Shown: piece after piece, positions 19,532-57,598 of the stretch
Position numbering within the stretch: the stretch's first letter is position 1
Layout of the letters: every line of letters starts with the position of its first letter
Source: Candidatus Methanomethylophilaceae archaeon
GTDB taxonomy: Archaea; Thermoplasmatota; Thermoplasmata; Methanomassiliicoccales; Methanomethylophilaceae
Direction of reading: 5' to 3'
Length of the DNA stretch: 64,000 bases
NCBI GenBank assembly: GCA_944320495.1
Contig: CALUHR010000013.1
Coordinates: 448,001-512,000 of the forward strand
The notes under the pieces: model-generated
The model's input: only the letters and a program-made list of their open reading frames with translations
The model's database searches: none
Told to the model about the DNA's origin: nothing
Position numbers and translations under genes: made by a program

Positions 19532-20401
19532 ATGGATGGGAACACAAGGATGGAGGATCTGGAGCAGCATCTGCTGTTCCACAGGGCGCTCGCCGACGAC
19601 GACGAGTCGCTCAGGAGGATAGGGGGATACATGGACATCCTCTCCCGGGCGGAGTCCGGGGAGAGGCTCCAGGACCCCGTGGACGAGTCGATCAGGGCCG
19701 TCTTCAGCCTGGTGCTGGAGAAGGGCATCGACCCCTGGGAGGTGGACCTCTCGGAGTTCGCCCGCATGTACGAGGCCAAGGTCTCCAGGGACAGCTTCGA
19801 CATGATCGTCGCGGGCAAGCTGCTGCTCATGGCATGGAGAATCCTGCGCATGCAGTCGGAGTCCACTAGGGCCAGGAGCGAGCCGCCGGTCGAGCCCGTC
19901 ATCGAGGAGGCCGACGACAGCTTCTTCTTCGAGGACGAGCCGCTGTACGTGCCCGAGGTCAGCTTCAGGGAGGCCTTCAGGAGGCAGACCGAGAGGCCCG
20001 TCACCGTGTACGAGCTCATCGACGCCTTCGAGGACGCCCGCAGGGACATCGATATCCAGCGCGAGCGCGAGCGCGTCCGCCGCGAGCTCAAGGCCAAGGA
20101 GCCCAAGAGGTTCGACAACAAGGCCCACGACGAGGACGACGAGCGCGACGTCGAGGCCGTGTGGAAGCGGATCGAGAGGCTCGGCACCGGGCAGATCGCC
20201 ATCCGCGACCTCTACACAGCCGACCTCCAGGAGAACCTCACCACCTTCGTGGCGGTGCTCCACCTGGTCAGGGACGGCAGGCTGGCCGTCTGGCAGGACG
20301 AGCTGCCCTACGGCACCATCTATCTGGAGATCAAGACGGACTGGTCCTCAGGGACCCTCGAGGACTCGCCCGGCCAGCTGGTGACCGAGGCGGTGAACCG
20401 A
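19532..20401 (+). CDS. scpA: segregation/condensation protein A (kleisin)
   Basis: IDPWEVDL and RPVTVYELIDAF motifs, C-terminal FVAVLHL winged helix, directly after smc. Ends at CGA 20399-20401, 1 nt before scpB (standard stop at 20761). Confidence 0.9.
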
Positions 20402-20402
20402 T

Positions 20403-20927
20403 TTGGACGCCAAGGGAGCGGCCGAGGCCGCGCTGTTCGCCAGTCCGGAGAACCTGAGGATCTCCGACATAGCGGAGCGCACGGGGTTCCCGGAGGAGGA
20501 GATCCGCACCGCGCTGATGGACCTCCGCAGGGAGTACGAGGAGCGCGATTCAGCCATAGTCATAGCCAAGATAGGCTCCGAGTACGGCATGATGCTCCGC
20601 GCGGAGTACTCCGACTTCCCCGGCATGTTCGGGAAGGCGGAGATGTCCGGAGGGCTGATGAGGACCCTCAGCACCATCGCATACAACCAGCCCGTGCTGC
20701 AGTCGGAGCTCGTGAGGACCAGGGGTCCCCGCGGGTACGACGACGTCCACAGGCTGATTGAGATGGGATTCGTCTCGGGGAAGAAGAGCGGGCAGACGCT
20801 GGAGCTGACGACGACCAAGAAGTTCTCGGACTACTTTGGCATCGGCTCCACCCGCAAGGCGGACATCCGCAAGTGGATCGAGTCCCAGGCGTCCAACTCC
20901 CGCATGCCCGAAGACGGCCAGGAATGA
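20403..20927 (+). CDS. scpB: segregation/condensation protein B
   Basis: AAEAALFAS, TLSTIAYNQPV and TTKKFSDYFG motifs; TTG start. Confidence 0.93.
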   Translation: MDAKGAAEAALFASPENLRISDIAERTGFPEEEIRTALMDLRREYEERDSAIVIAKIGSEYGMMLRAEYSDFPGMFGKAEMSGGLMRTLSTIAYNQPVLQSELVRTRGPRGYDDVHRLIEMGFVSGKKSGQTLELTTTKKFSDYFGIGSTRKADIRKWIESQASNSRMPEDGQE

Positions 20928-21176: not shown

Positions 21177-22822
21177 TGTCCCTCCTGAAGAAGATAGATG
21201 AGATATCCGGCAGCTACAAGGCGAGGAACGCCTGGCTGACGTTCGCCATAGTTCTCTTCATAGCGATCATCGTCATCCCCGCGATATTCGTAGTCACCAA
21301 GCTCTTCACGGAGTGGGACCTGGTCAGCGGGGTCCTGAACGATCCCGCGAGCATGGAGGTAATCGAGGGCGCGGTGTGGAACTCGTTCAGCATAGCGGCC
21401 ATAGTCACGGTCATCGACATCCTCGTGGGACTGCCGATGGCGTGGATCATGGTCCGCAGGGATTTCAAGGGCAAGAAATGGCTCGACACCCTGCTGGACA
21501 TGCCCCTGGCGTTCCCGACCGCCGTCCTCGGAATCTCGGTGGTCATGTTCTGGGGCGCCCCCGAGGGCATCACGATCCCGGGGCTGGGGCTGGACCTGTC
21601 ACCGTACGTGATGCTCCTGTTCCTCCACATCATATTCACCTATCCGTACATGGTCCGCTCCCTGTCCGGAATCCTGGAGCAGATCGACGTCAACTACGAG
21701 ACCGCGGCCATGACCCTCGGCGCTTCGAAATGGACCGCCGTGAGGACCATCACGATCCCCCTGTTCCGCGCCGGTCTCGCCACCGGGTTCATCCTGTGCT
21801 TCGCCAGGTCCCTGTCGGAGACCGGGGGCACATACATCGCCCTGACCATGATGGGCGTCGAGAGCACCTTCTTCACCGGGCCGTCGTTCATCAGCTGGCT
21901 GAAGTCCGACCCGACCATGGTCGACTCCGGGGACTACATGGGCGCCATGATCCTGATCAGCGTAGTCATGATCGTCCTGGCCCTGATCCTCCTCGTGGTG
22001 GTGAAGTGGATCATCGCGAGGTTCAGGATCCCCTGGAAGAAGGTCTGGCCGGAGATCGGCAGGAGCGTCAGCCGCGGCCCCCTCCCGAAGGTCAAGGACG
22101 TCATCACAGTCGTGTTCCTGATTATCGTGGTCCTGCTGCCCTCTTTCTACATATTCGCGTATCTGACGGAGCCGATCCCCGACATAGACTACGGGACGCT
22201 CCTGTCGTCCACCGGGGTGTCGTTCCTGGTTGCGGGCGTGGCCGTCCTCGTCGACCTCATCCTGGGCATCCCGCTGTCGCTCTACATCGCCAGGCACAAG
22301 GGCGGGAAGCTCGCCGGCATCCTGGACGGGCTGGTCAACGTCCCCCTGATCATCCCGACCACCGCGCTTGGATTCTCCCTGGCGCTGTTCTGGGCCAGCT
22401 TCGGTGCTGGGGACTCGATGGCCATCGTGCTGGTCATCCTCGGTCACATCTCGTTCACGTATCCGCTCGTGGTGAGGAACCTGGTGGGCGCGATAGAGGA
22501 GGTCAACCCGGAGTGCGAGGAGATCGCCATGACCCTCGGCGCCAAGCCCTTCCGCGCGTTCAGGACAATCCTCATGCCGATCATCAAGTCGTCCGTCGTC
22601 GCCGGATGCATCCTGGCGTTCACCAGGTCCCTGGGCGAGACGGGCGCGACCATCGCCATCAGCGACAGCGTCAGCACGGTCCCGATCTACATCACCAACC
22701 TGGTCCAGGACCACATGTACACCGAGGCGGCGATGTGCTCCATCGTCCTGATCGCCATCTGCTTCGTGCTGATGATGGTCGTCAGGATGCTAACACACAG
22801 GAGGCAGGGTAGGGATGCCTGA
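21176..22822 (+). CDS. ABC transporter permease with two fused TM domains (ModB/WtpB/CysT-like)
   Basis: Two EAA-type loops (YETAAMTLGA and CEEIAMTLGA), each followed by ARSLSETG or TRSLGETG. Confidence 0.9.
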   Translation: MSLLKKIDEISGSYKARNAWLTFAIVLFIAIIVIPAIFVVTKLFTEWDLVSGVLNDPASMEVIEGAVWNSFSIAAIVTVIDILVGLPMAWIMVRRDFKGKKWLDTLLDMPLAFPTAVLGISVVMFWGAPEGITIPGLGLDLSPYVMLLFLHIIFTYPYMVRSLSGILEQIDVNYETAAMTLGASKWTAVRTITIPLFRAGLATGFILCFARSLSETGGTYIALTMMGVESTFFTGPSFISWLKSDPTMVDSGDYMGAMILISVVMIVLALILLVVVKWIIARFRIPWKKVWPEIGRSVSRGPLPKVKDVITVVFLIIVVLLPSFYIFAYLTEPIPDIDYGTLLSSTGVSFLVAGVAVLVDLILGIPLSLYIARHKGGKLAGILDGLVNVPLIIPTTALGFSLALFWASFGAGDSMAIVLVILGHISFTYPLVVRNLVGAIEEVNPECEEIAMTLGAKPFRAFRTILMPIIKSSVVAGCILAFTRSLGETGATIAISDSVSTVPIYITNLVQDHMYTEAAMCSIVLIAICFVLMMVVRMLTHRRQGRDA

Positions 22823-23915
22823 GATTGTTCTGGACGACCTCTGCAAGGACTTCGACGGCCATGTCGCAGCCGACCATCTGAGCCTGACCATAGGCGATGG
22901 GGAGTACGTCTGCATCCTGGGTCCCACCGGGGCCGGGAAGACCACCGCCATGAGGATGATCTGCGGTCTCACGATCCCCGATTCCGGGAGGGTGCTCCTG
23001 GACGGGAGGGACGTGACCATGGATTCGCCGGACTCCAGGAACGCCACCATGCTCACGCAGACCTACGCGCTATTCCCGCACATGACGGTCTACAACAACG
23101 TCATGTTCGCCCCCAAGACCAAGGGGTGGCCGGAGGGCGAGTCGAAGCAGATCGTCAGGAGCATGCTGCACCTGGTGCATCTCGACCAGAAGGCGGACTG
23201 GGTCCCCGGGGAGCTATCCGGCGGCCAGCAGCAGCGCATTGCCCTCGCCCGCGCCCTCGCATCCGGGTCGAAGATCCTCCTGCTGGACGAGCCGCTCAGG
23301 GCGCTGGACGCGCGCCTGAGGATCGACCTGAGGAAGGAGCTCAGGTCCCTGGCCAAGGAGATGGGGCTCACGTGCATCCACGTCACCCACGACCAGGATG
23401 AGGCCCTGGAGATGGCCGACCGCATCGCCGTCATCCGCAAGGGCAGGATCATACAGTTCGGGACCCCCCGCGAGGTCTTCGAGAACCCGGCCACGCCGTT
23501 CGTGGCCAACTTCGTGGGCAGGTCCAACATATTCTCCGGCAAGGTCGTCGGAGCCGGCGACGGCAGGGTGTCCGTGGACGTCGGCGGGATCGTCCTGACC
23601 GGGAGGGGGGACGGGATGGAGCCCGGCTCCGAGGCGGTTCTCGCCGTCAAGGTCGGGTTCACCAGGCTCTCGGCGCCCGGGGAGGGGCCGGAAGGTTCCG
23701 TGAAGGGCATAGTGGAGCGCATCGTGTACGAGGGGGCCACCGTGACCGTGGAGGTCTCCGCCGGGTCGTTGGGCCTGGTTTCGTCCAAGCTGCCGAGCGC
23801 GAGGTTCGAGGAGTTCAGCGTCGGAGCCGCGGTCGATGTATCGTGGCCGGCCGACAAGGCGACGGTGTTCCAGATGCCCGCCGGCGGGCTCGAAGAGGAG
23901 ATGAGGTTGGACCGA
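22815..23915 (+). CDS. ABC transporter ATP-binding protein (PotA/CysA-like with TOBE domain)
   Basis: GPTGAGKT, LSGGQQQR and LLLDEP motifs. Ends ...EEEMRLD then CGA 23913-23915, overlapping the next ATG (standard stop at 24011). Confidence 0.92.
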
Positions 23916-25000
23916 TGGCAAGGATCAAGTTGGACAGGATCTCCATGCGCTTCGGCGATTTCTACGCCGTCAGGGACATATCGCTCGAGATCGGGAACGG
24001 CGAGTACGTGACCATCCTCGGACCGTCCGGTTGCGGCAAGACCACGCTCATCAAGGTCATATCGGGGATCTGGACCCCGACCGAGGGGAAGGTCTACGTG
24101 GATGGCAGGGACGTCACGAACATCCCCATGGAGGACAGGGACGTCGGATACGTGTTCCAGAACATCGCACTGTTCCCGCACATGAACCTGAGGGACAACG
24201 TCGAGTACAGTCCCAGGGTGAAGGACCAGGGCGACGAGAGGATGGCCGAGCTGTCAGAGGAGTACCTCAAGCTCGTGGGCATGTTCCAGAGGGCCGGGAT
24301 GCTCCCGTCGGAGCTCTCCGGAGGGGAGCAGCAGAAGGTCGCCATCGCCCGCGCGCTGGCATCCGGTTCCAAGATGCTGATGCTCGACGAGCCGCTGTCC
24401 GCTCTGGACGCTCGCGTCCGCGTCGAGCTGAGGTACGAGCTCCGCAGGATCGTCAAGAAGCTCGGGATAACCGTTCTCCACGTCACGCACGACCAGGAGG
24501 AGGCCATGTCGGTCTCCGACCGCATCGTGCTCATGCGCTACGGCGCCATCGCCGAGTCCGGTGCGCCCCTGGACATATACCGCCGTCCGAAGTCCGTCTT
24601 CGCGGCCAACTTCATCGGGGAGACCAACCTCTTCGAGTGCACCGTCTCCGATTGGTCCAAGAGCGGGAAGACCAGGGTCACCATGCGCGGTGGCCGCGAG
24701 ATCCGCGTGTCCCGCACGGACTTCCGTCCCGGGGACGCCGTCGTAGTGTCCGTGAGGCCGGAGCATGTGCGTCCGGACGAGGACGGGATCGAGGCGAAGG
24801 TGCGCTCCGTGTCCTTCAGAGGGGTCTACTGGAGGGTGAGGACCATGGCCGAGAGCAGTGACTATATTGAGTACGACGTACCTGCAGACGGTGAGGTCCC
24901 CGAGGTGGGAGACACCGTGCGCCTGTCCTTCGACAGGAACGCATCCGTCGTGTTCCCCAGACCCGAGGGCGGAATAGAGGAGGAGATCAGACTTGAGTAA
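23915..25000 (+). CDS. ABC transporter ATP-binding protein (paralog)
   Basis: GPSGCGKT, LSGGEQQK and MLDEP motifs. Ends ...EEEIRLE then TAA. Confidence 0.93.
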   Translation: MARIKLDRISMRFGDFYAVRDISLEIGNGEYVTILGPSGCGKTTLIKVISGIWTPTEGKVYVDGRDVTNIPMEDRDVGYVFQNIALFPHMNLRDNVEYSPRVKDQGDERMAELSEEYLKLVGMFQRAGMLPSELSGGEQQKVAIARALASGSKMLMLDEPLSALDARVRVELRYELRRIVKKLGITVLHVTHDQEEAMSVSDRIVLMRYGAIAESGAPLDIYRRPKSVFAANFIGETNLFECTVSDWSKSGKTRVTMRGGREIRVSRTDFRPGDAVVVSVRPEHVRPDEDGIEAKVRSVSFRGVYWRVRTMAESSDYIEYDVPADGEVPEVGDTVRLSFDRNASVVFPRPEGGIEEEIRLE

Positions 25001-25673
25001 GGATCAATCCGGCCTGCTTGGATGGTTCGGGAAGAGGAAGGAGGGCGTCGTCGGAGACGGTCTCCGCGCCATGTCCCTCTCCGTCCGCGACTGCGTAACC
25101 GAACTTGGCCTGGCACTGCGCGCCATGGGCGAGGAGGACTCCTCCGCCGCCAAGAAGGCCATCGAGAGGCTGTTCAAGTGCGAGCACGAGGCCGACGCCC
25201 AGGAGGACGAGCTCTGCAACCAGATAAGCATAGGCGAGCTCGGCGCCCAGGAGCGCGAGGACCTCATGCACTTCATCCGCAAGACGGACAAGATCGCCAA
25301 CTGGAGCAAGGAGGCCGCCATCGGCGTCTCCCTGGTCGACGAGCTGGGCATGAAGGTGCCCAAGGGCATCTGGGACATGCTCGCGCAGTCCGTGTCCGAC
25401 CTGGAGTCGGAGGTCCGCGGCCTCGCCAATTCGATAGAGATGATGGGGTCCGAGGGATCCGACATCATGGAGTGCGTCCGCGGCATCAGGGAGATGGAGA
25501 GGACGCTCGACCGCGCCTACTACGAGATGACGAAGACCATCTTCCGCGCGGACATCGATCCCAAGGCGGTCATCATGCTGCTGAGGATAGTGGACGCCAT
25601 CGAGATGGCGGCGGACACCTGCAAGGCCTGCTCCGACACCGTCGCGATCCTCCACTACGCCAAGAGGGTGTGA
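24993..25673 (+). CDS. DUF47/PhoU-like phosphate transport regulator
   Basis: EHEADAQEDEL, REDLMHFIRKTDKIAN and IEMAADTC motifs. Confidence 0.8.
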   Translation: MSKDQSGLLGWFGKRKEGVVGDGLRAMSLSVRDCVTELGLALRAMGEEDSSAAKKAIERLFKCEHEADAQEDELCNQISIGELGAQEREDLMHFIRKTDKIANWSKEAAIGVSLVDELGMKVPKGIWDMLAQSVSDLESEVRGLANSIEMMGSEGSDIMECVRGIREMERTLDRAYYEMTKTIFRADIDPKAVIMLLRIVDAIEMAADTCKACSDTVAILHYAKRV

Positions 25674-27058
25674 GCCTGACCCTCTTCGGGCCCGGCGGCG
25701 TCAGGGCCGTCGTCAACAGCGACCTGACGCCGGAGGTGGCGCTGGATCTGGGACGCGCCGTGGGGAGGACCCTCGGCGGCACGGTGGCCCTCGCCACCGA
25801 CGCAAGGGACTCCGCCCGCATGGTCAGGTCGGCCATGGTCGCCGGCATGATGGCCGTCGGGGCGGACGTCGTGGATCTCGGCATGATCCCCACGCCGGCG
25901 CTGCAGTTCTACGTCCGCGAGCATCCGGGGATATCCGGAGGCGTCATGGTGACGGCCTCCCACAACCCTCCCGAGTATAACGGTATGAAGCTGATACTCG
26001 GTGACGGCACGGAGGCCACCACCGAGGACGAGGCCGAGCTGGGCACATCCTACGCAATGGAGGCCCGCGATGCCGATTGGGACAGGGTCGGGCGCATCCG
26101 CACCGAGGAGGGCGCGATATCCGATTACATAGACGCGATAGTCTCCAAGGTCGATGCTGAGGCCATCCGTTCCGCCGGTCTGACCGTTTGCGTCGATTGC
26201 GCGTGCGGTGCGGCCAGCTTCTCGACGCCGCTGCTCCTCAAGAGGCTCGGCGTCTCCACGGTGACGATAGGCTGCGACCCCGTGGCGTCCCCTCACAGGG
26301 ACAGCGACCCGACGGAGGAGAACCTCACGACCCTCATGGGTCTGGTAAGGTCCTCCGGCGCCGACATGGGCATCGCCCACGACGGTGACGGGGGCCGCGC
26401 AGTGTTCATCGACGGGACTGGGAGGTTCCTCAACGGATCAGTCTCCGGGGCCATAGTCGCAAGGAGCATCCTGGCCGAGGGCAAGGGCAAGGTCGTGACC
26501 CCGATAAGCTCGTCAAAGGTCCTGGAGGACGTGGTGACCGAGGCAGGAGGGCTGGTGAAGTACACCGAGGTCCTCTCGCACCAGGTCGTCCGTAAGATGC
26601 AGGAGAACCTCGCGGTGTTCGGGGTCGAGGAGCACGGGGGCATGGTGTTCCCCCAGATGCAGATGTGCAGGGACGGCGCCATGGCGCTCGCCAAGATGCT
26701 GGAGATCATCGCCAAGAACGGTCCGCTGGCCGACATGGTGTCGCAGCTCCCGTCGTACAGCACGAGGAAGGTCAAGGTCCCCTGTCCGGAGGGGCTCAAG
26801 GTGCCCGTGATGGACAGGCTTCACAGGGATGTGGAGGCCGCGGGGTCCCGCATGGACGTGACCGACGGCATCAAGATAATCCTGAACGACGGATGGGCGC
26901 TGATCCGCGCCTCTACGACGGAGCCCTGCATCAGGGTGTACTCGGAATCGATGGACGCCGGTACCGCCGACAGGATACTGTCGGAGTACTCCAGGATGGT
27001 CAAGGACCTGGTTCGCGGGCTCACAGATGCTTCGCGTGCACAGCCAGAGCCTCGTTGA
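25670..27058 (+). CDS. phosphoglucomutase/phosphomannomutase/phosphoglucosamine mutase family protein
   Basis: LFGPGGVR, VTASHNPPEYNG phosphoserine loop, AHDGDGGR and IRASTTEP motifs; GTG start overlaps the previous TGA. Confidence 0.93.
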   Translation: MSLTLFGPGGVRAVVNSDLTPEVALDLGRAVGRTLGGTVALATDARDSARMVRSAMVAGMMAVGADVVDLGMIPTPALQFYVREHPGISGGVMVTASHNPPEYNGMKLILGDGTEATTEDEAELGTSYAMEARDADWDRVGRIRTEEGAISDYIDAIVSKVDAEAIRSAGLTVCVDCACGAASFSTPLLLKRLGVSTVTIGCDPVASPHRDSDPTEENLTTLMGLVRSSGADMGIAHDGDGGRAVFIDGTGRFLNGSVSGAIVARSILAEGKGKVVTPISSSKVLEDVVTEAGGLVKYTEVLSHQVVRKMQENLAVFGVEEHGGMVFPQMQMCRDGAMALAKMLEIIAKNGPLADMVSQLPSYSTRKVKVPCPEGLKVPVMDRLHRDVEAAGSRMDVTDGIKIILNDGWALIRASTTEPCIRVYSESMDAGTADRILSEYSRMVKDLVRGLTDASRAQPEPR

Positions 27059-27878
27059 TGAGCCTGGCCGCCAGGATCGAGGTTATGCCGGAGGGGTCGG
27101 CCGGAGGGCAGACCTCGTTGACGTCGAATCCCACGAGCCTCTCGCCGATGATGTTGATGACCTTCTTCACATCCATCGGCATGAGGCCGAACGGTTCGGG
27201 TGTGCCGGTCCCGGGTGCGAACGCGGGGTCGATCCCGTCTATGTCCACGGTGAGGTAGACCTTCTCGGCCTTGACCTCGTCGAGGGCCTTGCCGATGGCC
27301 TTCTCGATCCCCATGTCCATGATGTCGTAGGAACTGATGAACGGGACGACGTCGTCCCTGTCGAGCTCCTCCTCGCCGATGGCTCTGGCTCCGAGGACGT
27401 AGACGTTGTCCAGTCCCAGGTGCTCCGCGGCGCGCCTCATGACGCAGGCGTGGCTGTTCGGGGTCCCGAGGTACTCGCCCCTCGAATCGAGGTGGGCGTC
27501 TATCGAGATGAGCGCGATGCTTTTCTCGGGGAAGGCGCGGACGATCGGGATGTTGATGGAGTGCTCCCCTCCGATGGCCACCGTGAACTTCCCGTCGTTG
27601 ATGGCGGGACGGACGGCGAAGTCCACCTCGGCGAACATGTCCTCGGGAAGGATGAAGTCGTCGCAGTTCCCGTAGTCGTACACCTCGAGACGTCTCTGGT
27701 GGATCCCGTGCTCGAAGTGTATCTCCTCAAAATTGTAGGAGGCCCGCCGGATGGCGGTCGGGGCCTCCCTGGCACCCGCCTTGAAACAGGCGGTGTGGTC
27801 GTACGGGATGCCGAATATCACGGCCTCCGCGTCGTTGTATTCTGATTCGGCGCCGGCGTAGGCAAGCCCGTACGACAT
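27021..27878 (-). CDS. speB: agmatinase
   Basis: GGEHSI, DAHLD and TVDIDGIDPAFAPGTGTPEP motifs. Confidence 0.95.
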   Translation of the reverse strand: MSYGLAYAGAESEYNDAEAVIFGIPYDHTACFKAGAREAPTAIRRASYNFEEIHFEHGIHQRRLEVYDYGNCDDFILPEDMFAEVDFAVRPAINDGKFTVAIGGEHSINIPIVRAFPEKSIALISIDAHLDSRGEYLGTPNSHACVMRRAAEHLGLDNVYVLGARAIGEEELDRDDVVPFISSYDIMDMGIEKAIGKALDEVKAEKVYLTVDIDGIDPAFAPGTGTPEPFGLMPMDVKKVINIIGERLVGFDVNEVCPPADPSGITSILAARLINEALAVHAKHL

Positions 27879-27888
27879 TGGTTTCACC

Positions 27889-28266
27889 TCACATTATCTT
27901 GTATCTGCCCATGGCCTCGAGGTAGAGGATCTCTCCGCCCTCGGCGAGGGGCTGCTCGTGGTCGGCGTTGATGGGGATAGAGATCTGCTCGAAGGTCTCC
28001 ATGTCCATGATGAGGGCCTCCTCATCGCTGAGGGTCAGGATCTGTCCCTTCCTCTTGTCGATGACGGGCACCTGGACCTTGGTGCTCACGGGTCCGACGA
28101 TGGACTTCTTAGCGCCGGTGAAGATGCTGACCGCGTCAACGTTGGCTTTGGCGGATCCGTGCTTTCCGGGCTTGGAGGTCGTGATCTTGATGATCTTGCA
28201 GGGCTCGTCGTCGACGTTGACGTACCTGCCCTCTTTCAGCTCCCTGATCTCTTTCATCTCCCACAT
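27889..28266 (-). CDS. eif5a: translation initiation factor aIF-5A
   Basis: TSKPGKHGSAK hypusine motif. Confidence 0.97.
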   Translation of the reverse strand: MWEMKEIRELKEGRYVNVDDEPCKIIKITTSKPGKHGSAKANVDAVSIFTGAKKSIVGPVSTKVQVPVIDKRKGQILTLSDEEALIMDMETFEQISIPINADHEQPLAEGGEILYLEAMGRYKIM

Positions 28267-28629
28267 TTGGACTCACTCTCTCATATTGATGAATGGCTCC
28301 GCGCCCATCAAGGCCGGAGGTTCACCCCCGTGAAGGAGGCGTCGATACGCATGTTCTTTGCAATCATGCTATCTGGACCACCCCTACGGGAGTATCTGGA
28401 TATTAAGATTACTGGGAAAACGGAATCTGGCACTCGTCTGGTGCCGGCATGTGTGGATCAGGTCCGGCGGATAGTTCGTCAGCGTCCCGCAGGGGTCTCC
28501 GGTCGGCGACGGCGGTGAGCACCACCGATGTGATCAGGTACGTGATTAGACCGGCGCCCGGGGATGTCCGCGCGGAGCCTTCCGGCTCCGTACGCGGTCA
28601 CGAGCCCGGGGTCGCGGTGGCGAAGCCGA

Positions 28630-29730
28630 TCGCCGCCTGCGCGGTCCGCCCTTGCCCTTGCCGCCCCTGTTCCTGGGCTTCCCCGACTTCTGCTTCTGGG
28701 GCTTCTTCGGCGGGTCGGGGTACCTCCTGCGGATGTCCTCCACCCTGGCCCTGAACTCCTCGTTCAGGCGGTCCCCGGCGAACTCGCCGTGGTACTCGTC
28801 GATCTTCGCCGCGATCAGGACCTTGCCGGCCAGCGCCCTGGCGACCTTCCCGCGCTGCCAATAGGGCGAGCGGTGGACCTCCGGGTGCTGGTAGATTATG
28901 CCGTGCTTGGGCCCCCTCTTGCCGGAGCGCATGCTCCTGAACATGGCCTTCTCGGCCCCGAGGAGCTGCACGGTGGAAGACGGGAGGGAGGCGAGCCTCT
29001 CCAGCCCTCCGGCGAGGGACACCAGCCTCGCGGCCAGCGGTCCTCCGAGCATGGCGCACATGTTGGGGCACGACTCCTCGACGATCCCCTGGATGTAGGC
29101 CTGGGTCCTGAGCTCGTCGTCGTAGAGGCGGTCGAGGGTGTCCGCCAGGTCCATGACCGCGCGGAGGTCCTCGTCATCCATGTCGGACCCGATGGACTCG
29201 ATGTCTATGCCGAGCTCCCCCATCACGGAGTCCCTGTCGCCGTATCTGGCGACGAGCTCGGCGTACCTCCTGTCGTGGGCGTAGTCCGCGAGCTCCGGGA
29301 AGTGCATCCCGTACCACTCGTGCAGCCTCTCGTTGTACAGGTTGATCGTCGCGATCTGGTCGTCCAGGCATCTGATGGCCTGGGCCATGCTGCGGTCCCT
29401 GGCTATGGGCTCGGAGGTCCTGAGCCTGCCGAGTCCCAGCATGACCTCGTGCATGAACGCGTCGTCGTATCCGTAGTCGGCGGCATGGATGAACGAGGAG
29501 TCGAACATCATGGGCTTCCCGAGCTCGGACTGCCTGCGCTCGGATACGGAGGGCTTCTCGATTCCGGCGACGAGCTCGCGCTCCTCGTCGAGCACGCCCC
29601 CGCGCTGCATCTCCGCCAGCTTCTGCGCCGCGGCCTCGGCGTCCTTGGGCATCAGCCTCTTGTCGAGGATCCTCCCGGACTTCTCGTCCACGAGGAAGCA
29701 CCCGAACCATTTCGTCACGAGCACCGCCAT
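28630..29730 (-). CDS. nop5: C/D box sRNP protein Nop5
   Basis: LHEWYGMHFPEL, LPSSTVQLLGAEKA and PKHGIIYQHP motifs with a Lys/Arg tail. Ends at CGA 28632-28630 (standard stop at 28546). Confidence 0.93.
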
Positions 29731-30332
29731 CGCATCACCCCCAGCTTCGCGAGCTCGGAGTCCGGGAGGTCCTCAGCATCGCCGCAGAGCAGCTGCAGGC
29801 GGGCCTGGAACTCCAGCTCCTCCATCCTGTCGAAGGCCTCCTCCAGGGTGGTCCCCTGCGTGAGGGCGCCGTGGCGGACCATGAGCATGGCCTTCGCGTC
29901 GGCGTGCTCGGCCACGGCGTCCACGAGCTCCTGGGTGCCCGGGGTCACGTACGGGACCTCCGCGACCCTCCCCAGGAGGAGCGCCCCTTCTGGGGTGAGG
30001 TTGCATCTGAGCCTCTCGCCCCGGACGGTGATCGCGATGCAGTTGAGCGGGTGGCAGTGGACCACCGCGTTCGTTCCGGGGTTGGCGCGGTACAGTGCCA
30101 GATGGAAGCCCGTCTCGATCGACGGCCTCCCTCCTGACACGACGGTGCCGTCCATGGAGACCTTCACCAGGTCCTCGGGGGACAGCAGGCTCTTGTTCCT
30201 GCCGGACGGCGTGATCAGGATGCCGTCGTCGATCCTGACGCTCATGTTCCCGCCGGCCGACACGGTGAGGTCCCTGTCGTACAGCATCCTGCAGGTCGCG
30301 ACCAGCGCCCCGCGAGCCTCCGCCTCGTCCAT
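29730..30332 (-). CDS. class II aldolase/adducin family protein (MtnB/Ald2-like)
   Basis: GGNMSVR, PSIETGFH, VVHCHP and LMVRHG motifs. Ends at CGA 29732-29730 overlapping the nop5 ATG. Confidence 0.9.
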
Positions 30333-30333
30333 G

Positions 30334-31332
30334 TCAGTCCCTCATGACGTGGACCTCGTCCGGTCTGAGGATCCCTTTCTCGGTGATGAACCCGGTCACG
30401 AGCTCCGCGGGGGTGACGTCGAACGCAGGGTTCAGCGCCTGGGAGCCCTCCGGGGCGATCCTGGCGCCGTTCATGACGCAGACCTCGTCCTGGGAGCGCT
30501 GCTCGATGACGATGTCCTTGCCCGACTCCATGGACAGGTCGAAGGTGGACACGGGCGCGGCGACGTAGAACGGGATGCCGAAGTGCTTCGCGACGATGGC
30601 CTTATCGAATGTCCCGATCTTGTTGGCGAAGTCCCCGTTGGCGGTGATCCTGTCCGCCCCGGTGATGATCATGTCGACGCCCTGGCTCATGTAATATGCG
30701 GACGCCCCGTCCGGGATGATCCTGTGCTCGATGCCCTCCTGCCACAGCTCCCAGGCGGTGAGCTGCATGCCCTGGAGGCGCGGTCTCGTTTCGGACACGT
30801 AGACGAAGAAGTCCCTGCCGGCGTCGTGCGCGTACCTCATGGGGGCGAGCGCGGTGCCGACGTCGACGGTGGCGAGGGCCCCGGCGTTGCAGTGGGTCAT
30901 CAGCTTCATGCCGTCCTCTATGAGCTCGCCGCCGTACCTGCCGATACTCCTGCACTTCTCGACGGTGGTCTCCGCATAGGTGTCAGCGGCCTTCACCGGG
31001 TCCTCGCCCTCGGCGAGCCTGGCGGACATCCAGTCCACGGCGTGGAAGAGGTCGTACGCGGTGGGGCGGGCGGCCTTGATGTCACTGGCGGCCCGGGCGA
31101 GGTCGTCCCCGTTCAGGGCCGCGAGGCACATGCCGTAGGCGGCGGAGGCCCCGATGGACGGCGCCCCGCGGGTGGTCATGTTCCTGATGGCCTCGGCCAC
31201 GTCGCGGTAGTCCCTGAACCCGACGATGCCGATCCTGGCCGGCAGCAGCCTCTGGTCGATCATGCGGACCTCACCGCCCTCGAACCAGACGGCCCTGATG
31301 TCCTTCCTGATTCCGTCTACGACAGCCTTCAT
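30334..31332 (-). CDS. mtnA: S-methyl-5-thioribose-1-phosphate isomerase
   Basis: RGAPSIG, ARPTA, THCNAGALAT, ETRPRLQG, NKIGT and NPAFDVTP motifs. Confidence 0.93.
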   Translation of the reverse strand: MKAVVDGIRKDIRAVWFEGGEVRMIDQRLLPARIGIVGFRDYRDVAEAIRNMTTRGAPSIGASAAYGMCLAALNGDDLARAASDIKAARPTAYDLFHAVDWMSARLAEGEDPVKAADTYAETTVEKCRSIGRYGGELIEDGMKLMTHCNAGALATVDVGTALAPMRYAHDAGRDFFVYVSETRPRLQGMQLTAWELWQEGIEHRIIPDGASAYYMSQGVDMIITGADRITANGDFANKIGTFDKAIVAKHFGIPFYVAAPVSTFDLSMESGKDIVIEQRSQDEVCVMNGARIAPEGSQALNPAFDVTPAELVTGFITEKGILRPDEVHVMRD

Positions 31333-31447
31333 GTTAACAACGGGGGAAGGTCGGGGACGTAGATAAGATGATGCCGATCCCCGTCCGTGCGAATCTCCAG
31401 TTCCATGATGCGTACAGTTTTTATCATTCGCAGGCATCACCCGGCTC

Positions 31448-32194
31448 ATGACCGACGGCCCACTCACAGACTTCGAGCTGTACTTCACCAAGAACGGACT
31501 GGTGCAGGTGTCGAACGACGTGAGGCGCCGCATCCTCCACGAGCTGGAGACGAAGGACCTGTCCCTCACAGACCTCTCCAAGATCCTCGGCAAGGCGCAG
31601 TCTACCCTTTCGGTACATCTGGACAAGATGGTCGACGAGAGCCTCATCGCCGTACACGACGATCCGGAGGACAGCAGGAGGAAGGTGTACTCCCTCGTGT
31701 CCATCATGCTCGCGTACTCCAAGCCCCCGTCGGACGACGCCATGACCATGGCGATGAAGGTCCTCACGGAGGTCGCGGATGACCCCATCGCGACGCGCAA
31801 CGCCCTGACCAAGTTCCTCTTCCTGGGGTTCGACGGGATGGGTCTTTCGGTGGAGCCCATGGCCACGATCCTGGGGTCCATACACGCTATGGCGCTGGGA
31901 GGGTTCCTCACGGGACCCACCATCGAGGACACGGTCGCCAACGCCAGGGACTACTACAAGAAGATGGGGTTCGGTGACGCCAGTGTGTTCTCCCTGAAAC
32001 CGCTGTCCATCACGATAAAGGACGACCTCTCGTTCTCGGCGGACGCCGCCAAGTCTCTCGGCAACTACGCCATCGGGTTCTTCAGCAAGGTCCTGGAGGA
32101 CGCCACAGGGAAGACCTACTCCGTCACATCGAGCGAGGTCTTCGGTCTCGACGGCAACTACTTCCGCTTCACCATCGAGCCCGTGAGCCAGCGA
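31448..32194 (+). CDS. ArsR-family HTH transcriptional regulator with a V4R-like C-terminal domain
   Basis: RRRILHEL...KAQSTLSVHLDKM...DSRRKVY winged HTH. Ends at CGA 32192-32194 (standard stop at 32857 would run through the whole convergent gene). Confidence 0.82.
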
Positions 32195-32824
32195 TCGCCT
32201 CGACGGTTCGAACGTCAGGAGGGCGCCGTTGCCCAGGGTCTCGCAGGAGACGAGCGTGAGCCTCATGCCTCCGTCGGCCACCCATCCGTCGCCGTCGCAG
32301 GGCGTGGGGGCGTCGCGGCCGCCGATGACGAGGCCTCCGACGAACACGGTGTACCTGTCCACCATGCCTGCTCTGAAGAACGACGATATCGTCTCGCCGC
32401 CGCCCTCCACGAGGACGTTCTCGACCCCCATGTCCGCGAGCTCCTTCATGACCTTCTCCAGGTCGATGCGGTCGGCGCCGGCGCGGATTATCTCCTCGCA
32501 GTCCCACTCGCGGTCGCAGCCCTCCAGGGTGACCATTATTGTCGGTGCCCTCTCGTCCAGGATCTTCGCTTCGTCCGGGGTCCTCCCGTGGGGGTCCAGA
32601 ACGATCCTGATGGGGTTGGTGTCGTAGTCCAGGTCCTTGAGCGTGAGATGCGGGTCGTCAGCGACGACGGTGCCGACGCCCACGAGTATGGCGTCGTATT
32701 TGCGCCTGAGCCCCTTGGCGCGGGCCTTGTCCTCCTCGGAGGAGATCGATACCTGGGTCCTGTCGTCCCCGGCGATCTTGCCGTCGGCGGACATGGCGCA
32801 GTTGACGTGTACGAAAGGTCTCAT
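32195..32824 (-). CDS. arfC: 2,5-diamino-6-ribosylamino-4(3H)-pyrimidinone 5'-phosphate reductase (RibD C-terminal family)
   Basis: AMSADGKIA, DAILVGVGTVVADDPHL and LVEGGGET motifs. Ends at CGA 32197-32195 (standard stop at 31424). Confidence 0.88.
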
Positions 32825-47543: not shown

Positions 47544-48364
47544 GAGCGGAGTTCGAGGTGCCGGACATACCGGCGATCAGGTCCGAGGGCCTGACGCCGG
47601 TGGACATGCACTACCACACCAGCTGCTCGGACTCGGACACGGACCCCGTCGCCGCCCTCCGCCTGGCCGAGCGCATGGGCGTGGGGTTCGCGGTCACCGA
47701 CCACAACCTGATCCAGTCGGTGCTGAGGCTGAAGGAGGTACGCTCCTCCGTCCCCGTCGTCCCGGGGATGGAGGTCAGCACCACCGACGGCCCGCACATA
47801 CTGGTCTACTTCCCCACCTCCAGGTCCCTGGAGAGGTTCTGGTACACGCGCATCCGCCCCCGCATCCAGGAGAACCCGTGGCTGGCCCTCAGGGACTGCA
47901 CCACCGAGAGGCTCCTGGACATGTGCGAGATGGAGGACTGCGTCGTCTCCGCCGCCCACCCCTCGGGATACTTCAACACCAACAAGGGCGTCGAGATCTG
48001 CATCCGCAAGGGCATCCTCATGCCGTCGGTGGCAAGGCGTCTCGACGCATACGAGGTGATCTCCGGGGGAATGACCCGCGAGTCCAACGAGAACTCCATA
48101 GCCGCCGCCAAGGAGTACGGGCTGGGGTTCACAGGGGGCACCGACTCCCACGTCCTCAACGGCCTCGGAGGCGTCGTCACCGTGTGCCAGTCGTCCACCG
48201 TGGAGGGGATCCTGGAGGACGTGAGGCACCATCGGGTGGACGTGATCGGACAGGAGAAGAACATCCGCGAGAAGGTCGTCACCGGCTCCGCCTCCGCCAT
48301 GAAGTTCGCCCTCCACGTGCCCTCGACCGTATCGGTGAAGGCTCGCGGGATGGTCCGGAGACGA
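47540..48364 (+). CDS. PHP-domain phosphoesterase
   Basis: DMHYHTSCSD, VTDHN, GMEV, AHP and GGTDSH motifs. Ends at CGA 48362-48364, abutting the convergent TGA (standard stop at 49870). Confidence 0.85.
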
Positions 48365-50170
48365 TCACTGGTCGTCTTCCTGCTCCTGCTCCGCCATCTC
48401 GGCCCTTGTCTGGCGGCGCTTCCTCACGTAAAGGACGAGTATCGCCAGCGCGGCCACCGCTATGATCGCCGCATAGTACCACAGCTCCACCTCGACGGCG
48501 TTGGGGACGATCAGGATTATCAGGAAGTCGATCAGCACGATCAGGAGGTACGTGTTGATGTCCAGGAAGTTCAGGAACCTCTCGTATATGGCGACGGGGT
48601 TCGAGTCGCGCCCCTCCCTGTTGGCGATGCGCTTGGCCCCGCCGATGATGATCTCGTCCAGGAACTTCACGTTGTTGATCATGTAGTACGTGGGGATCGT
48701 CAGGAACAGGAAGTTCATGCCGAGGATCATCAGGACCCATCCGGTCTGATTCCATCCGAAGGACTCCAGCAGCCATTCGCTCAGCGGAGGCGTGAGGAAG
48801 TAGAAGGCGATCTCTATCGCCGCGATGACCAGGATGTTGATGTACGCATGGGTCATGCTGCGGTAGACGGCCTTCTGGGACTTCTTCGAGGACGCGGAGA
48901 GGCGGTCGTAGGTCCTGGACCTGGCGTCGTTGAGCGAGCAGCATGCCGCGTAGATGGGGCGGGGGCACTTGGACACGACCCCGTCCCAGATGCTCCCCGC
49001 ATAGCGCGACACGATCGGGAGGGTTATCATCGAGAGCAGGGCCGCGCCGATGACCGAGGTGTAGAACCCGTCGTCTATGACCCCGTCAGCCAGCGCCTCG
49101 GCGGCGATGATGAACGCGAACTCCCCCATGGCGCAGAGGTTGATCGCCGAAAGGAACCCGTTCCTGCAGGTCTCGTTCCCGATCCAGTACGCCAGGAACC
49201 CGTTGCAGGTCATCAGGACGAAGTAGATGACGAAGAAGATCAGGATGGTGCCGATGTTGTCCACCAGGATGGACGCTGGATAGACCTCCGCACCTATGCT
49301 GATGAAGAACACGGCCATGAACAGGTCCCTCATGGGGCCGATCTTGCTGTTCACGTCCTTGGCCTTCCTGCTGCTGGCCACCATCATGCCCATCAGGAAC
49401 GCTCCGATGGCCATGGACAGGCCGGCGTATGTGGCCAGCAGGGCCATGAGGAACGCCAGTCCGACGGATGCGACCGTGAGGATCTCGTCGGACACGTTGT
49501 CGGAGATCCAGTTGATGATCCTCGGCACGACCCTCAGGCCCACGACGATGCTGATGACCATGAACACGAGGATCTTGACGATCAGGACGATGATCTCGTT
49601 GATGTCCATCCCGCCCATCTCCCCGGCGGAGTAGTTCGCCATCAGCGGCGTGATCATGGAAAGGATGATGACCTGGCCGATGTCCTCCATGATGGCGACG
49701 AGGATGAGCATGTCCACGTGGTCGCGGTCGAGCTTGTTCTGCGTCTTCAGCACGGCGAGCAGCACGGCGGACGAGGATCCGGAGATTATGGCGCCCAGCA
49801 CGAGGGACTGGGTCATGTCGTAGCCGAGGAGCGTCCCGGCCACGAATCCCCCTGTGAGCATGAGGGGTAGCAGGATGACCACCACGAGGATGGCGAAGGA
49901 CCCCTGCTTGCGGATCTTCTTGATGTTGATCTCCAGCCCTATGCAGAACATCAGCAGGACCAGTCCGAAGTCCTTCAGGAAGGAGATGATCTCCTCTTCG
50001 GCGAGGATCGTCCCCTTGTCCTGGAAGAGGAACATGACGTTGACCAGGACGATGCCCGCGATGATGTATCCGATGAGCGGGGGCAGCTTGAACTTGTTGA
50101 AGACGATGGAACAGACCGCGGCGAGCAGCGAGAACAGCGCCAGCGCCGTCAGCATCACCGTCTCTTCCAT
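48365..50170 (-). CDS. cation:proton antiporter (CPA2/KefB-like)
   Basis: PPLIGYIIAG, LLMFCIGLE, SSSAV, MEDIG and GEFAFII motifs. Confidence 0.9.
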   Translation of the reverse strand: MEETVMLTALALFSLLAAVCSIVFNKFKLPPLIGYIIAGIVLVNVMFLFQDKGTILAEEEIISFLKDFGLVLLMFCIGLEINIKKIRKQGSFAILVVVILLPLMLTGGFVAGTLLGYDMTQSLVLGAIISGSSSAVLLAVLKTQNKLDRDHVDMLILVAIMEDIGQVIILSMITPLMANYSAGEMGGMDINEIIVLIVKILVFMVISIVVGLRVVPRIINWISDNVSDEILTVASVGLAFLMALLATYAGLSMAIGAFLMGMMVASSRKAKDVNSKIGPMRDLFMAVFFISIGAEVYPASILVDNIGTILIFFVIYFVLMTCNGFLAYWIGNETCRNGFLSAINLCAMGEFAFIIAAEALADGVIDDGFYTSVIGAALLSMITLPIVSRYAGSIWDGVVSKCPRPIYAACCSLNDARSRTYDRLSASSKKSQKAVYRSMTHAYINILVIAAIEIAFYFLTPPLSEWLLESFGWNQTGWVLMILGMNFLFLTIPTYYMINNVKFLDEIIIGGAKRIANREGRDSNPVAIYERFLNFLDINTYLLIVLIDFLIILIVPNAVEVELWYYAAIIAVAALAILVLYVRKRRQTRAEMAEQEQEDDQ

Positions 50171-50370: not shown

Positions 50371-51483
50371 TCGGCGGCCGAGCATCATCTTCCTTCTGAA
50401 CTCGGCGCTCCTCTTCGCGACCTCGTCCACGTTGTGCCTGTCCACCACCTGAACCTCCGGCAGCCTGCGCGGGTTGGCCGCGAGCATCCTGTCCAGGAGG
50501 TTCCTGTCGGAGAACTCGCACTTCTTCAGGTACGGCCTCTCCCAGTTCGACGCCAGGTCCATCATGGCCTCGATCCCGCGGTCGTAGAACAGCGAGGCGA
50601 ACACGGCGCCGACGGTGGACTCCTTGGACATGATGGCGATGTTGCACCCGCGCACGGCGAAGTCGGTCCCGTTGAACGAGACCGCCGCCCCGCCCGCGTC
50701 TCTCACGAGGTCCAGGCACTGGTAGTCCGTGTCGTCCCCTCCGATGTACATGGTGCAGTCCAGGTCGATGTTGGTCTGCTTCCTGATGTCCAGGAGCTGG
50801 TACGCCTTGCGGTGGGACGTCACAGGCACCGAGGACTCCATGAGGCTCATGGCCGGGAGCTCGGGTATCTGGTTCTGGAGGATGTCGTCCAGGGTCCTGA
50901 TGATCTTGACGTCCCACTCGTCGATCTCCATGGGGACGTTGAGCTCGTACTCCACCTTCGGGATGCGCAGGGACGTCACCGTCTCGCACATCTCGCGCAT
51001 CCTGCGGGCGTCCGCGCGACCGAACTGCATGTGGTCGAGGTCGGTCTGGGAGCAGAACACCTCGCACAGCGGCACGTCGATCCTGTCGGCGACGGTCATC
51101 CATCCGTGATTGTAGATTGAGGTGGACACGAAGGTGGGGAGCATCCGGGATATGAAGCGGAGCGCGTCCTCGGAGCCGGGCATGAACCTGAGCGTCTCCT
51201 CGTACGCCTTCTTCAGGAGATGGTCGGTGGCGCCGTTGGCCTTCAGGAAAGGGATGACCCATTTGGCGGTGTTGCCGGCCGTGGCCTCCTCCCTGCCCAG
51301 CACATAGGCGGTGAGATGGTCGTACCTCCTCACCACGTCGTAGAAGTGGGCGCCGTTGCGGATGAAGCGGGCGCAGACGTCGCGGAGGGGGTCGTTCTGA
51401 AGGACGAAGCCGCAGAGGTTCGTCACGAGGATCCTGTCGGGGAAGAGCCCGAGCTCCTCCGCGGGGTCGTACTCTCCCGGCAT
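50371..51483 (-). CDS. HAD-like protein resembling EhaR-family proteins
   Basis: AGNTAKWVIPFL and MYIGGDDTD...AVSFNGTDFAVR motifs. ATG overlaps the purN CGA; ends at CGA 50373-50371 (standard stop at 50356). Confidence 0.6.
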
Positions 51484-52310
51484 CGCTGGTCCTCCAGCGC
51501 CCTGTCGACCATCTCGGAGAGGTCCACGGGTCCGCGGACGGTTCCGTCCGAGGTCACAGGCCTCTTGTCCTCTATCCTGACCCTGCCGTCGGCGAAGGCC
51601 CTGATGGTCTCGGTTATGAGGGGGAGCTCGCGCTTGGCACCATCCTCCCTGATCCTCTTGAACAGGGGCTCCTCCAGCCCCTCGGATGCCTTGATCTGGT
51701 CGAGGGTGGACGATTCCAGCTTCCTCGCCATCTGCTCCCACAGGGCGTCGTAGTTGCCTCCGCGGATGGGGAACCCGCAGTATGTGATGGCCGCCCCGCG
51801 GTCCCACTCCTTGGTGCACACGTGCATCATGGCGCCCTGTCTCTCCGCGTTCTCGGAGATGAGCTGCCAGATGACCTCCTGCCAGGTGCCTTTTGGTCCG
51901 TCCGGCAGAGCGGGGTGGAGGTTGAGCATGTCGAACTCGTCGCAGGTCTCGTCGTCCATCCAGAGCATGTATCCGGCGAGGATCCCCAGGTCGAACTCGT
52001 ACGGGGAGACGGCCTCGCGGAGCACCTTGCCGTACTCCACGCGCCATGCGGCCTCGTCGGCCTCCCTCAGCTCGGGCATGAACTCCTTCCAGGATGCGGT
52101 TACGAGCGGGATGCCGTAGCCCTCGACCATGTCGAAGAACATCTGCCGCTGTTCGCGCTTGGGGTTGTCGGTCTCCTCGTTGGACCAGTTGCAGAAGACG
52201 AATGCAATCTCGACGTCCAGGTCGCCCGCGAGCTTTCTGTCCATGACAGCCTTCAGGAGGTTGCGGGACCCCGGGCCCCTTCCGGTGGAGAACCAGCCGA
52301 GTCTGAGCAT
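51483..52310 (-). CDS. purN: phosphoribosylglycinamide formyltransferase (archaeal PurN-like)
   Basis: LGWFSTGRG, LAGYML, LNLHPALP and WDRG motifs. Ends at CGA 51485-51483 overlapping the next ATG (standard stop at 51423). Confidence 0.8.
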
Positions 52311-56302: not shown

Positions 56303-56938
56303 ATGGACGAGGCGACCTTCGACCGCGCCAAGGCATTCATCCGCGACCTCTTCGAGGGCGACAGCGGCGGTCACGACTACTGGCATTCGATTCGCGTCCA
56401 CGACCTCGCCGTCTCCATCTGCGGCAGGGAGGGAGGCGACATGGACGTCGTCCGTCTGGCGGCGCTCCTGCACGATGCGGACGACCGCAAGCTCTTCGGA
56501 CAGGGGAGCCGCAACGCCAGGGGATTCATGGACTCCGAGGGCATACCCTCAGACGTCCAGGACGAGGTCGTGGAGATCATATCGAAGATATCGTTCAAGG
56601 GAGCCGACACCGAGGTGCCCGCATCGCTGGAGGGGAGGATAGTCCAGGACGCCGACAGGCTGGACGCCATAGGTGCCGTCGGCATAGCCAGGGCCTTCGC
56701 CTACGGCGGGAGCAGGGGCCGTCCGATGCACGATCCGGAGGTCCCGCCGTGCGAGGGCATGGGCGAGGCCGCCTACTTCGCCAATCGCGGGACGACGGTC
56801 AACCACTTCCACGAGAAGCTGCTCCTGCTGAAGGACATGATGAACACCCCGACCGCCCGCGCCATGGCGGAGTCCCGCCACCGCTACATGGAGGGCTTCC
56901 TGGAGGAGTTCCTGGACGAGTGGGAGGGCCGCAGGCGA
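56303..56938 (+). CDS. HD-domain protein
   Basis: GHDYWH, LLHDADD, VQDADRLDAIGAVGIAR and HFHEKLL motifs. Ends at CGA 56936-56938 (standard stop at 57235). Confidence 0.9.
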
Positions 56939-57598
56939 TCGCAGGAGCTCGAACCGGTTCTTGGAGAACTTCAGGACGCCGTCGGCCTGCATCCTTCCGA
57001 GCTCGGCCGACAGGGCGCTCCTGTCCACGCCCAGGTGGTCGGCCATCTGCTGCCTGTTCAGCGGTATGGAGAACTCGTTGCTCCCCGCGATCCTGGCCTG
57101 GTCGGACAGATAGGCGCACACCTTCTCGCGGATGCTCCGCTTCGACATCTGCCCCAGCCTCCTGTCGCGCTCCACGGTGCTGCGGGCGAGGGCCTGGACC
57201 AGATTTCTGACGACTCTCGAATGGAACTGGCATGATGACGGGCAGGTCGTCGTCACCCTGGAGATCTCGAAGAACATGATCTCGGACCGATCGCTGGTGA
57301 CGAAGCTCGTGTCCGCCCGCTCGCCCATCGAGCACGCGTACTCTGCGAAGATCACATCGCCCGGTCCGTGAGAGGAGACCAGGGTCCTGTTCCCCCACCA
57401 ATCCTGTTTTATGACGTCGACGCGGCCGTCGAGGACGACACCCAGGCAGTCGACGGGGTCCCCGCTGCGAAGCACGAACTCCCCCTTGGGATACTTCTCC
57501 CTGCGGGCGTTCAGGCATTCGCACATCGCTGTAATCTCATCATCAGACGTCCCCAGGAAGATCCCGGTGTTCCTGAGGATGGGGATTGGGCTTCTCAT
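56939..57598 (-). CDS. Crp/Fnr family transcriptional regulator (HcpR-like)
   Basis: cNMP-binding beta-roll and HTH (IPLNRQQMADHLGVDRSALSAELGRM). Ends at CGA 56941-56939 (standard stop at 56549). Confidence 0.9.

Follow-up and report, generated by a model that had tools for sequence, protein, structure and literature searches.

CGA as a probable stop codon beside TGA in a genus of Methanomethylophilaceae archaea

We analyzed a 64,000-nucleotide (nt) window of the genome of a gut methanogen, a Candidatus Methanomethylophilaceae archaeon (genome G000; window, G000:C13:448001-512000), in which the sequence CGATG joins an aldolase-like gene to nop5 at positions 29728–29732 of the minus strand. 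Across this genome, CGA lies where coding regions end, and at orthologous positions it is interchangeable with TGA. Judging from these codon patterns, we consider it probable that in G000 and its genus CGA serves as a terminator beside TGA and TAA, with TAG hardly used, and that CGATG at this and three other junctions of the window is a stop–start overlap of the TGATG type. To our knowledge, CGA is a sense codon in every NCBI translation table.

CGA at gene ends across the genome

The G000 assembly comprises 1.77 Mb in 14 contigs, with a GC content of 62%. A third-position GC of ∼0.9 makes the coding frame easy to recognize. Coding scores were codon log-odds, trained on the central halves of long open reading frames (ORFs). 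In a before/after test, we collected codons that follow 30 strongly coding, stop-free codons and scored the next 30 codons for coding signal. Non-coding sequence followed CGA in 351 of 374 cases (94%) and TGA in 931 of 1028 (91%), with coding sequence following in 6 and 28 cases, respectively; for TAA, 40 of 60 cases were non-coding and 6 coding. Among sense codons used as controls, the non-coding share was 8–28%: 670 of 8073 for CGC (8%; coding after 6200), 573 of 7576 for GGA (8%; coding after 5884), 125 of 1161 for CGT (11%; coding after 776), 316 of 1461 for AGA (22%; coding after 837) and 303 of 1096 for CGG (28%; coding after 415). A looser version of the test gave the same picture. TAG scored between stops and sense codons and looked partly sense; on inspection these cases were mostly antisense-frame artefacts. 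A first, crude ORF set, in which rare codons gathered at both ORF ends, was confounded by wrong-frame ORF ends, and the before/after test was used instead.

Distances past CGA resemble those past TGA, with a median of 35 versus 29 codons to the next stop of translation table 11. The sequence beyond CGA is therefore random with respect to the upstream frame. Table-11 tails after coding-context CGAs exceed 30 residues in 229 of 435 cases and 100 codons in 129 of 435. Back-up stops within 5 codons are not in excess, being present behind 69 of 435 CGAs and 153 of 1121 TGAs.

A simple gene caller that counted CGA as a stop along with TGA, TAA and TAG returned 1696 genes, ending in TGA (1201), CGA (420), TAA (55) or TAG (20); table 11 gave 1570. 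Overlaps of at least 30 nt dropped from 26 under table 11 to 9 when CGA was counted. Genes ending in CGA make up ∼25% of the calls in the genome and 23 of 65 in the window. One of these is a 289-residue frame at 19532–20398, which we take to encode ScpA. It ends ...EAVN, then CGA, with a single base between this codon and the TTG (20403) that opens the next gene, presumably ScpB (20399–20405, plus strand). The 120-residue tail that table 11 would append is Arg/Gly/Pro-rich and is out-of-frame sequence of that next gene.

CGATG as a stop–start junction

A sequence-only reading had placed CGATG at four gene junctions of the window, each by a single coordinate (1038, 23915, 29730 and 51483) that corresponds to the shared A. 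The pentamer is present at all four, at 1036–1040 (minus strand), 23913–23917 (plus), 29728–29732 (minus) and 51481–51485 (minus). The claimed one-base overlap also holds in our gene calls: at 4 of 4 sites the reading frame of the upstream gene runs into CGA, and ATG is the first codon of the gene that follows. At 29728–29732, CGA (29732–29730) ends a class II aldolase-like gene of 200 residues (29733–30332, minus strand; Pfam Aldolase_II at residues 10–181, E 9.4e-50), and ATG (29730–29728) starts nop5 (28630–29730, minus strand; 366 residues, Pfam Nop at residues 127–331), which itself ends in CGA at 28632–28630. The junction at 1036–1040 leads from a TauE-family gene (1041–1859) to a DUF1634 gene (778–1038), as assigned by Pfam. 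That at 23913–23917 lies between two ABC ATPase genes (22815–23912 and 23915–24997), whose products of 366 and 361 residues both match ABC_tran and TOBE_2. At 51481–51485, a formyltransferase-like gene (51486–52310; Pfam Formyl_trans_N) precedes a 370-residue gene (50374–51483) that is likewise CGA-ended (50373–50371). Most of the gene names first proposed were thus borne out by Pfam (TauE, DUF1634, ABC ATPases, Aldolase_II, Nop, Formyl_trans_N); 'EhaR-like' was not, the 370-residue protein having no Pfam match. Three of the four downstream proteins carry a Pfam domain.

Under table 11, the upstream frames would run on by RWS-stop (TauE), 32 residues (ABC ATPase), RWRCS-stop (aldolase-like) and 20 residues (formyltransferase-like), giving overlaps of 10, 97, 16 and 61 nt in the order of sites 1038, 23915, 29730 and 51483. 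The bare word CGATG is frequent in the window (403 matches versus 287.5 ± 16.9 expected), and therefore its count alone means little. A frame switch exactly at the pentamer, described below, is the informative measure. CGATG is the commonest junction of CGA-ended same-strand pairs in G000 (51 of 246), while the 884 TGA-ended pairs have ATGA in 248 cases and TGATG in 20. CGA-ended genes shift to the 1-nt overlap because the 4-nt ATGA overlap needs TGA. The frame-switch test, which is independent of gene calls, asked for coding signal in the XGA frame before an XGATG pentamer and in the ATG frame after it, with xGATGA excluded. Genome-wide, the frame switched exactly at the pentamer 31 times for CGATG and 28 times for TGATG, as against 6 for GGATG and 1 for AGATG, the controls that put in-frame CGATG above chance. 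In this set, run-on to the next table-11 stop was alike for CGATG (3–94 codons) and TGATG (3–89 codons). Recurrence of CGATG at gene junctions, first proposed from the window, extends to the whole genome, with 51 CGATG versus 20 TGATG junctions in gene calls and 31 versus 28 frame switches.

Start signals were scored as any 5-mer of the Shine–Dalgarno (SD) string at −18 to −3 of the start. Such a 5-mer precedes 30 of 51 CGATG starts (59%) and 12 of 20 TGATG starts (60%), compared with 114 of 248 ATGA starts, 98 of 560 starts after gaps of >20 nt and 1387 of 13809 internal ATGs (10%). In the window it is found at 3 of the 4 CGATG sites; the 1038 site has just GGGGGTG. That CGA occupies the position of a terminator, and that CGATG resembles a stop–start overlap in both geometry and frequency, is supported by the junction counts, the matching run-on distances, the orthologous TGATG junctions described below and the share of SD-like motifs. 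On this arrangement, the upstream protein would be terminated at CGA, perhaps efficiently enough for the proposed re-initiation at the downstream ATG; independent, SD-led initiation would be the alternative.

The known TGATG and ATGA overlaps of prokaryotic operons are alike in strand, in 1-nt overlap, in SD share (59% versus 60%) and in position in relatives. They differ in that the stop member here is CGA, with which the 4-nt ATGA form is impossible. The comparator that had been offered as a TGATG junction, 61884–61888 on the plus strand, fits in part. TGA (61884–61886) does end the upstream gene there, but the sequence is ATGATG from 61883 (61883–61888). Either of its two in-frame ATGs may open the downstream gene, which makes the 4-nt ATGA type just as possible at this junction.

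Orthologous gene ends in related species

The last 60 residues of every called G000 gene were aligned to 1.28 Mb sampled from eight other species, and solely alignments reaching the last residue were kept. Of the CGA-ended genes, 55 gave a total of 124 pairs; the codon that comes next in the relative was TGA in 58 pairs, CGA in 38, TAA in 1 and a sense codon in 27. Just 3 of these 27 are arginine codons, and all 27 frames reach a stop within 1–5 codons. The control, TGA-ended genes (223 genes, 554 pairs), gave 496 TGA, 10 TAA, 3 CGA and 45 sense codons. On the tally of 124 pairs, CGA is orthologous to stops and not to arginine.

The orthologous junctions can be compared in the same way. Among 30 species, the aldolase–nop5 junction is CGATG in four (G000, G046, G010 and G001) and TGATG in three (G018, G013 and G009). 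In the remaining 23, as judged by eye with the frame unchecked, TGA lies at the start or no more than ∼8 nt upstream of it. G018, the nearest relative, has TGATG where G000 has CGATG; the two are 100% identical in the archaeal release factor aRF1, 99% in the presumed ScpA and 98% in the aldolase-like protein. Across 12 species of the genus, the gene read as ScpA ends in CGA in 6 and in TGA in 6.

We also surveyed samples of 90–200 kb from each of eight other species of the genus. A codon matrix self-trained on 200-kb samples took the wrong frame for G043 and G015, and the G000 matrix was substituted for genus members. All eight species follow the G000 pattern at varying levels, with 0–2 interior CGA events per sample. 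Terminal CGA:TGA counts are 26:47 in G010, 20:132 in G004, 16:124 in G013, 7:48 in G045, 7:149 in G043, 6:134 in G015, 3:95 in G066 and 1:69 in G006, beside 351:931 for the whole G000 genome. In the rare CGA users G043 and G015 (loci L181-L200), several terminal CGAs have a standard stop 0–3 codons later, for example ...KPKQFL-CGA-stop. Such back-up stops would fit an early stage. In G045, the table-11 frame of the aRF1 gene (locus L018 / L077) stays open to 655 residues; at about codon 410 it has CGA in place of the TGA of the other species. CGA thus seems to mark the end of the release-factor gene itself in G045.

Outside the genus, G074, from another genus of the family (49% GC), has several CGAs inside seemingly conserved motifs, for example ...GGDGTIL[CGA] in what we take to be NAD kinase. 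Because they lie within conserved-looking motifs, the CGA change seems not to be family-wide, on the basis of one 200-kb G074 sample. A 200-kb sample of G079 (45% GC) gave too few events to judge.

Sense CGA codons, tRNA-Arg(UCG) and the release factor

Several points weigh against CGA being a terminator. The tRNA-Arg(UCG) gene is kept in G000, as identified by ARAGORN. In three G000 genes an in-frame CGA falls inside a single Pfam domain, at residue 78 of aRF1 (eRF1_1), residue 30 of ribosomal protein L18e and residue 119 of a Flavodoxin_4 protein. No genus-specific change was found in the NIKS motif of aRF1, which is intact, or in its YxCxxxF motif. The latter reads Y-R-C in 79 of 79 aRF1 sequences of the family, and this form is common also to genera in which CGA seems to be sense. 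Finally, gene calls and coding scores come from purpose-made, simple scripts with chosen thresholds, and the relatives compared are kin and non-independent, were scored with the G000 codon matrix and are represented by partial samples.

CGA is nearly absent from coding interiors, with coding sequence after it in 6 of 374 cases, yet it stands inside the Pfam domains of aRF1, L18e and flavodoxin. The in-frame CGA of L18e is present also in G043 and G015. One further 360-residue frame has CGA exactly between its SIS and HAD domains and is possibly a readthrough fusion. Together, the L18e, Flavodoxin_4 and SIS/HAD frames occupy two places of locus L264 (1057-1413 and 3121-4200, both minus strand) and one of locus L261 (1331-1837, plus). 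Because tRNA-Arg(UCG) is kept and at least three genes need CGA to be read through, decoding of CGA is probably ambiguous. CGA is not a pure stop.

The tRNA-Arg(UCG) gene of G000 (G000:C13:413317-413390; locus L014:518-591) has an A31.A39 mismatch, U32 and C38. Loss of the cognate tRNA is not what we found: BLAST and ARAGORN locate the gene in G000, in 4 of the 7 other genomes of the genus that were searched, and in 19 genomes of nine other genera. The other 3 of the 7, which are 97–99% complete, gave no BLAST match to it. Positions 31 and 39 are mismatched in 5 of 5 genus copies (A.A, U.C and, three times, C.A) and paired in 19 of 19 others. The G000 copy is alone in having U32 and C38, the other 23 having C32 and A38.

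The aRF1 gene (G000:C2:85936-87165, minus strand; locus L013:937-2166) carries one in-frame CGA, at the conserved Arg78. Of 30 genus loci, 29 were parsed; all 29 have this CGA, and in 28 it is the sole CGA of the gene, the count in the remaining locus being inflated by an open frame past the gene end. A separate count of 44/44 is circular, its rows having been picked for CGA, and 29/29 is the unbiased figure. The residue aligns with Arg in the solved archaeal and human factors. Among 79 aRF1 loci of the family, exactly one in-frame CGA is present in 69 and none in three, and the sole CGA occupies differing conserved places by lineage (index 77, 24, 10, 122, 49 and others). We saw no conserved RNA element past the aRF1 CGA, where codons 79–81 vary freely. 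Within the first 150 residues of aRF1, D17 and C142 are the only genus-specific ones.

Autoregulation of prfB uses an in-frame stop codon. The aRF1 gene is alike in carrying, early in its frame, a species-conserved codon at which its own factor would terminate; it would differ in that there is no frameshift and passage would be by tRNA-Arg reading. By this analogy, the conserved CGA resembles the prfB device and could offer feedback on release-factor level, as an idea. Yeast eRF1/eRF3 is reported to be able to release at CGA, in competition with tRNA-Arg (Wada and Ito, PMC7379694). The UGA-biased yeast eRF1 variants L123F, L123R and L123Y are reported to strengthen CGA release (PMC7379694). 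By way of an alignment to human eRF1, the Arg of the aRF1 Y-R-C motif falls at the position of yeast L123.

Alternative explanations

Under the standard code, CGA would be a rare arginine codon, genes would run to the next TGA, TAA or TAG, and the four window sites would be ordinary overlaps of 10–97 nt. Presence of tRNA-Arg(UCG) speaks for this, as do the short tails at two of the four sites (RWS-stop and RWRCS-stop) and, in aRF1, a CGA that encodes a conserved arginine aligned to Arg of solved a/eRF1 structures. We nonetheless regard it as very improbable. Non-coding sequence follows 351 of 374 coding-context CGAs, and tails exceed 30 residues in 229 of 435. Of the 124 orthologous codons compared, 97 are a stop or CGA and 3 encode arginine. 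Moreover, the 120-residue tail of the gene read as ScpA is out-of-frame sequence of the next gene, read as ScpB. An error of sequencing or assembly, with TGA read as CGA, has next to no chance of being the cause: no point in its support was found, the pattern is present in the assemblies of nine species of the genus, relatives retain CGA at the matching gene end in 38 of 124 pairs, and all 29 species read have it at one codon of aRF1.

C-to-U editing of mRNA would turn CGA into UGA and leave termination to normal UGA decoding. It would account for the interchange of CGA and TGA without any change in aRF1, whose decoding motifs are indeed unchanged. None of our data support it directly. However, the in-frame CGAs of aRF1, L18e and flavodoxin would need to escape editing, and the single conserved CGA of the release-factor gene fits competition on the ribosome better. 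We know of no mRNA C-to-U editing system in archaea, which also counts against this explanation, and we hold it to be quite unlikely. As for RNA data, 15 runs contain 5–22% of sampled words; contigs of 4 runs on 22815–32800 are short, shallow and 95–99% alike, with 98 differences, and are too thin to judge editing. Unlikely, too, is that CGA is a starved, nearly unassigned codon at which ribosomes stall because the tRNA is poor, with a rescue route, and not aRF1, releasing the chain. The genus-specific 31–39 mismatch of tRNA-Arg(UCG), the U32 and C38 of the G000 copy where the other 23 have C32 and A38, and the missing BLAST match in 3 of 7 other genus genomes (97–99% complete) would all agree with stalling. 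Yet CGA ends 25% of genes with no excess of back-up stops (69/435 versus 153/1121 for TGA), and stalling would be costly at such a scale. The conserved CGA specific to aRF1 points to the release factor instead, and release at CGA by yeast eRF1 is reported (PMC7379694).

A possible route to CGA termination

If CGA is a terminator beside TGA, as we favor, the ribosome would end the upstream protein at CGA, whose A is the first base of the next ATG, usually with an SD-like motif upstream. The chain would be released at CGA by aRF1, in competition with a weakened tRNA-Arg(UCG), leaving the codon ambiguous. The cause may be in two parts, a permissive, UGA-leaning aRF1 that is family-wide and a weakening of tRNA-Arg(UCG) specific to the genus. 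In a few genes, including aRF1, CGA would be read through as sense, and this could give feedback on the level of the release factor.

How the genus might have arrived at a working, ambiguous CGA stop can be outlined only tentatively, and we give the full sequence of steps less than an even chance: TAG assigned to pyrrolysine, a UGA-leaning aRF1, a weakened tRNA-Arg(UCG) and retained CGAs as sensors. At the outset the family would have given TAG to pyrrolysine and carried a UGA-leaning aRF1, with Arg in YxC. The 31–39 mismatch would then weaken tRNA-Arg(UCG) in the genus, and aRF1 would win at CGA. As an outcome, TGA and CGA would drift into each other at gene ends, and the few sense CGAs that persist (one fixed in aRF1, another in L18e) may tune the translation apparatus to the balance between release and readthrough.

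Relation to known codes and implications

In some mitochondria, AGA/AGG, TCA and TTA have changed from sense to stop or are unassigned. CGG is reported to be unassigned, or nonsense, in Mycoplasma capricolum (Oba 1991, as cited in PMC8629427). These cases are alike in that a codon of the arginine box turns rare, poorly decoded and nonsense-like. They differ in that CGA is here the regular end of ∼25% of genes in a free-living archaeon that keeps the cognate tRNA gene. In two archaeal assemblies from hydrothermal vents, CGA is missing from recognizable domains and 'may' be a stop, according to a 2026 preprint (10.64898/2026.04.02.715157). Those assemblies are at ∼50% GC, have reassigned CGG to Trp and lack tRNA-UCG, and the method used is described there as unable to infer stops (10.64898/2026.04.02.715157). 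G000 differs from them: its CGG looks sense, it retains the tRNA, and orthologous TGA codons show the stop role of CGA. The family aRF1 has Arg at the L123 position, a likeness to the yeast system, in which CGA release is a weak by-reaction, found at repeats or at the ends of reporters, and not a genomic stop signal (PMC7379694).

Genetic Code 34, in which TAG is pyrrolysine genome-wide, has been described for the family Methanomethylophilaceae (10.1101/2024.09.30.615893). The available part of that preprint makes no mention of CGA and describes reliance on the remaining standard stops (10.1101/2024.09.30.615893). G000 agrees with the code in family, in the presence of PylS (260.8 bits versus a cut-off of 178.15; location entry G000:C9:67854-68522) and in having TAG at the end of just 20 of 1696 genes. 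ARAGORN returned no genes for tRNA-Pyl, tRNA-Trp or tRNA-Tyr in G000, which may reflect unusual structure, introns or assembly gaps. Among the listings and passages covered by literature searches, no paper was found that establishes a stop function of CGA in archaea or bacteria, including Methanomassiliicoccales.

If CGA is indeed a terminator, annotation of the genus under table 11 would misplace C-termini, create spurious long overlaps and fuse frames, errors that protein databases inherit; in G000 alone, 129 tails of >100 residues would be affected. It would also mean that a sense codon has become a stop in a cellular genome, not that of an organelle, with species of one genus at different stages of the change and the tRNA still present. 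CGA ends in sister species are 1–55% as many as TGA ends. The 'ambiguous intermediate' route of code change would become directly testable. Release at CGA by yeast eRF1 in the laboratory would be linked to a natural code, and a feedback device for an archaeal release factor would be suggested.

Convergent gene ends in the window

Three pairs of convergent genes in the window abut stop to stop without a spacer. At 32192–32197 and at 56936–56941 the sequence is CGATCG, with both genes of each pair CGA-ended, and at 48362–48367 it is CGATCA. All three abutments center on the palindrome GATC. Genome-wide, TC directly follows the gene end at 89 of 397 CGA ends and 149 of 1013 TGA ends.

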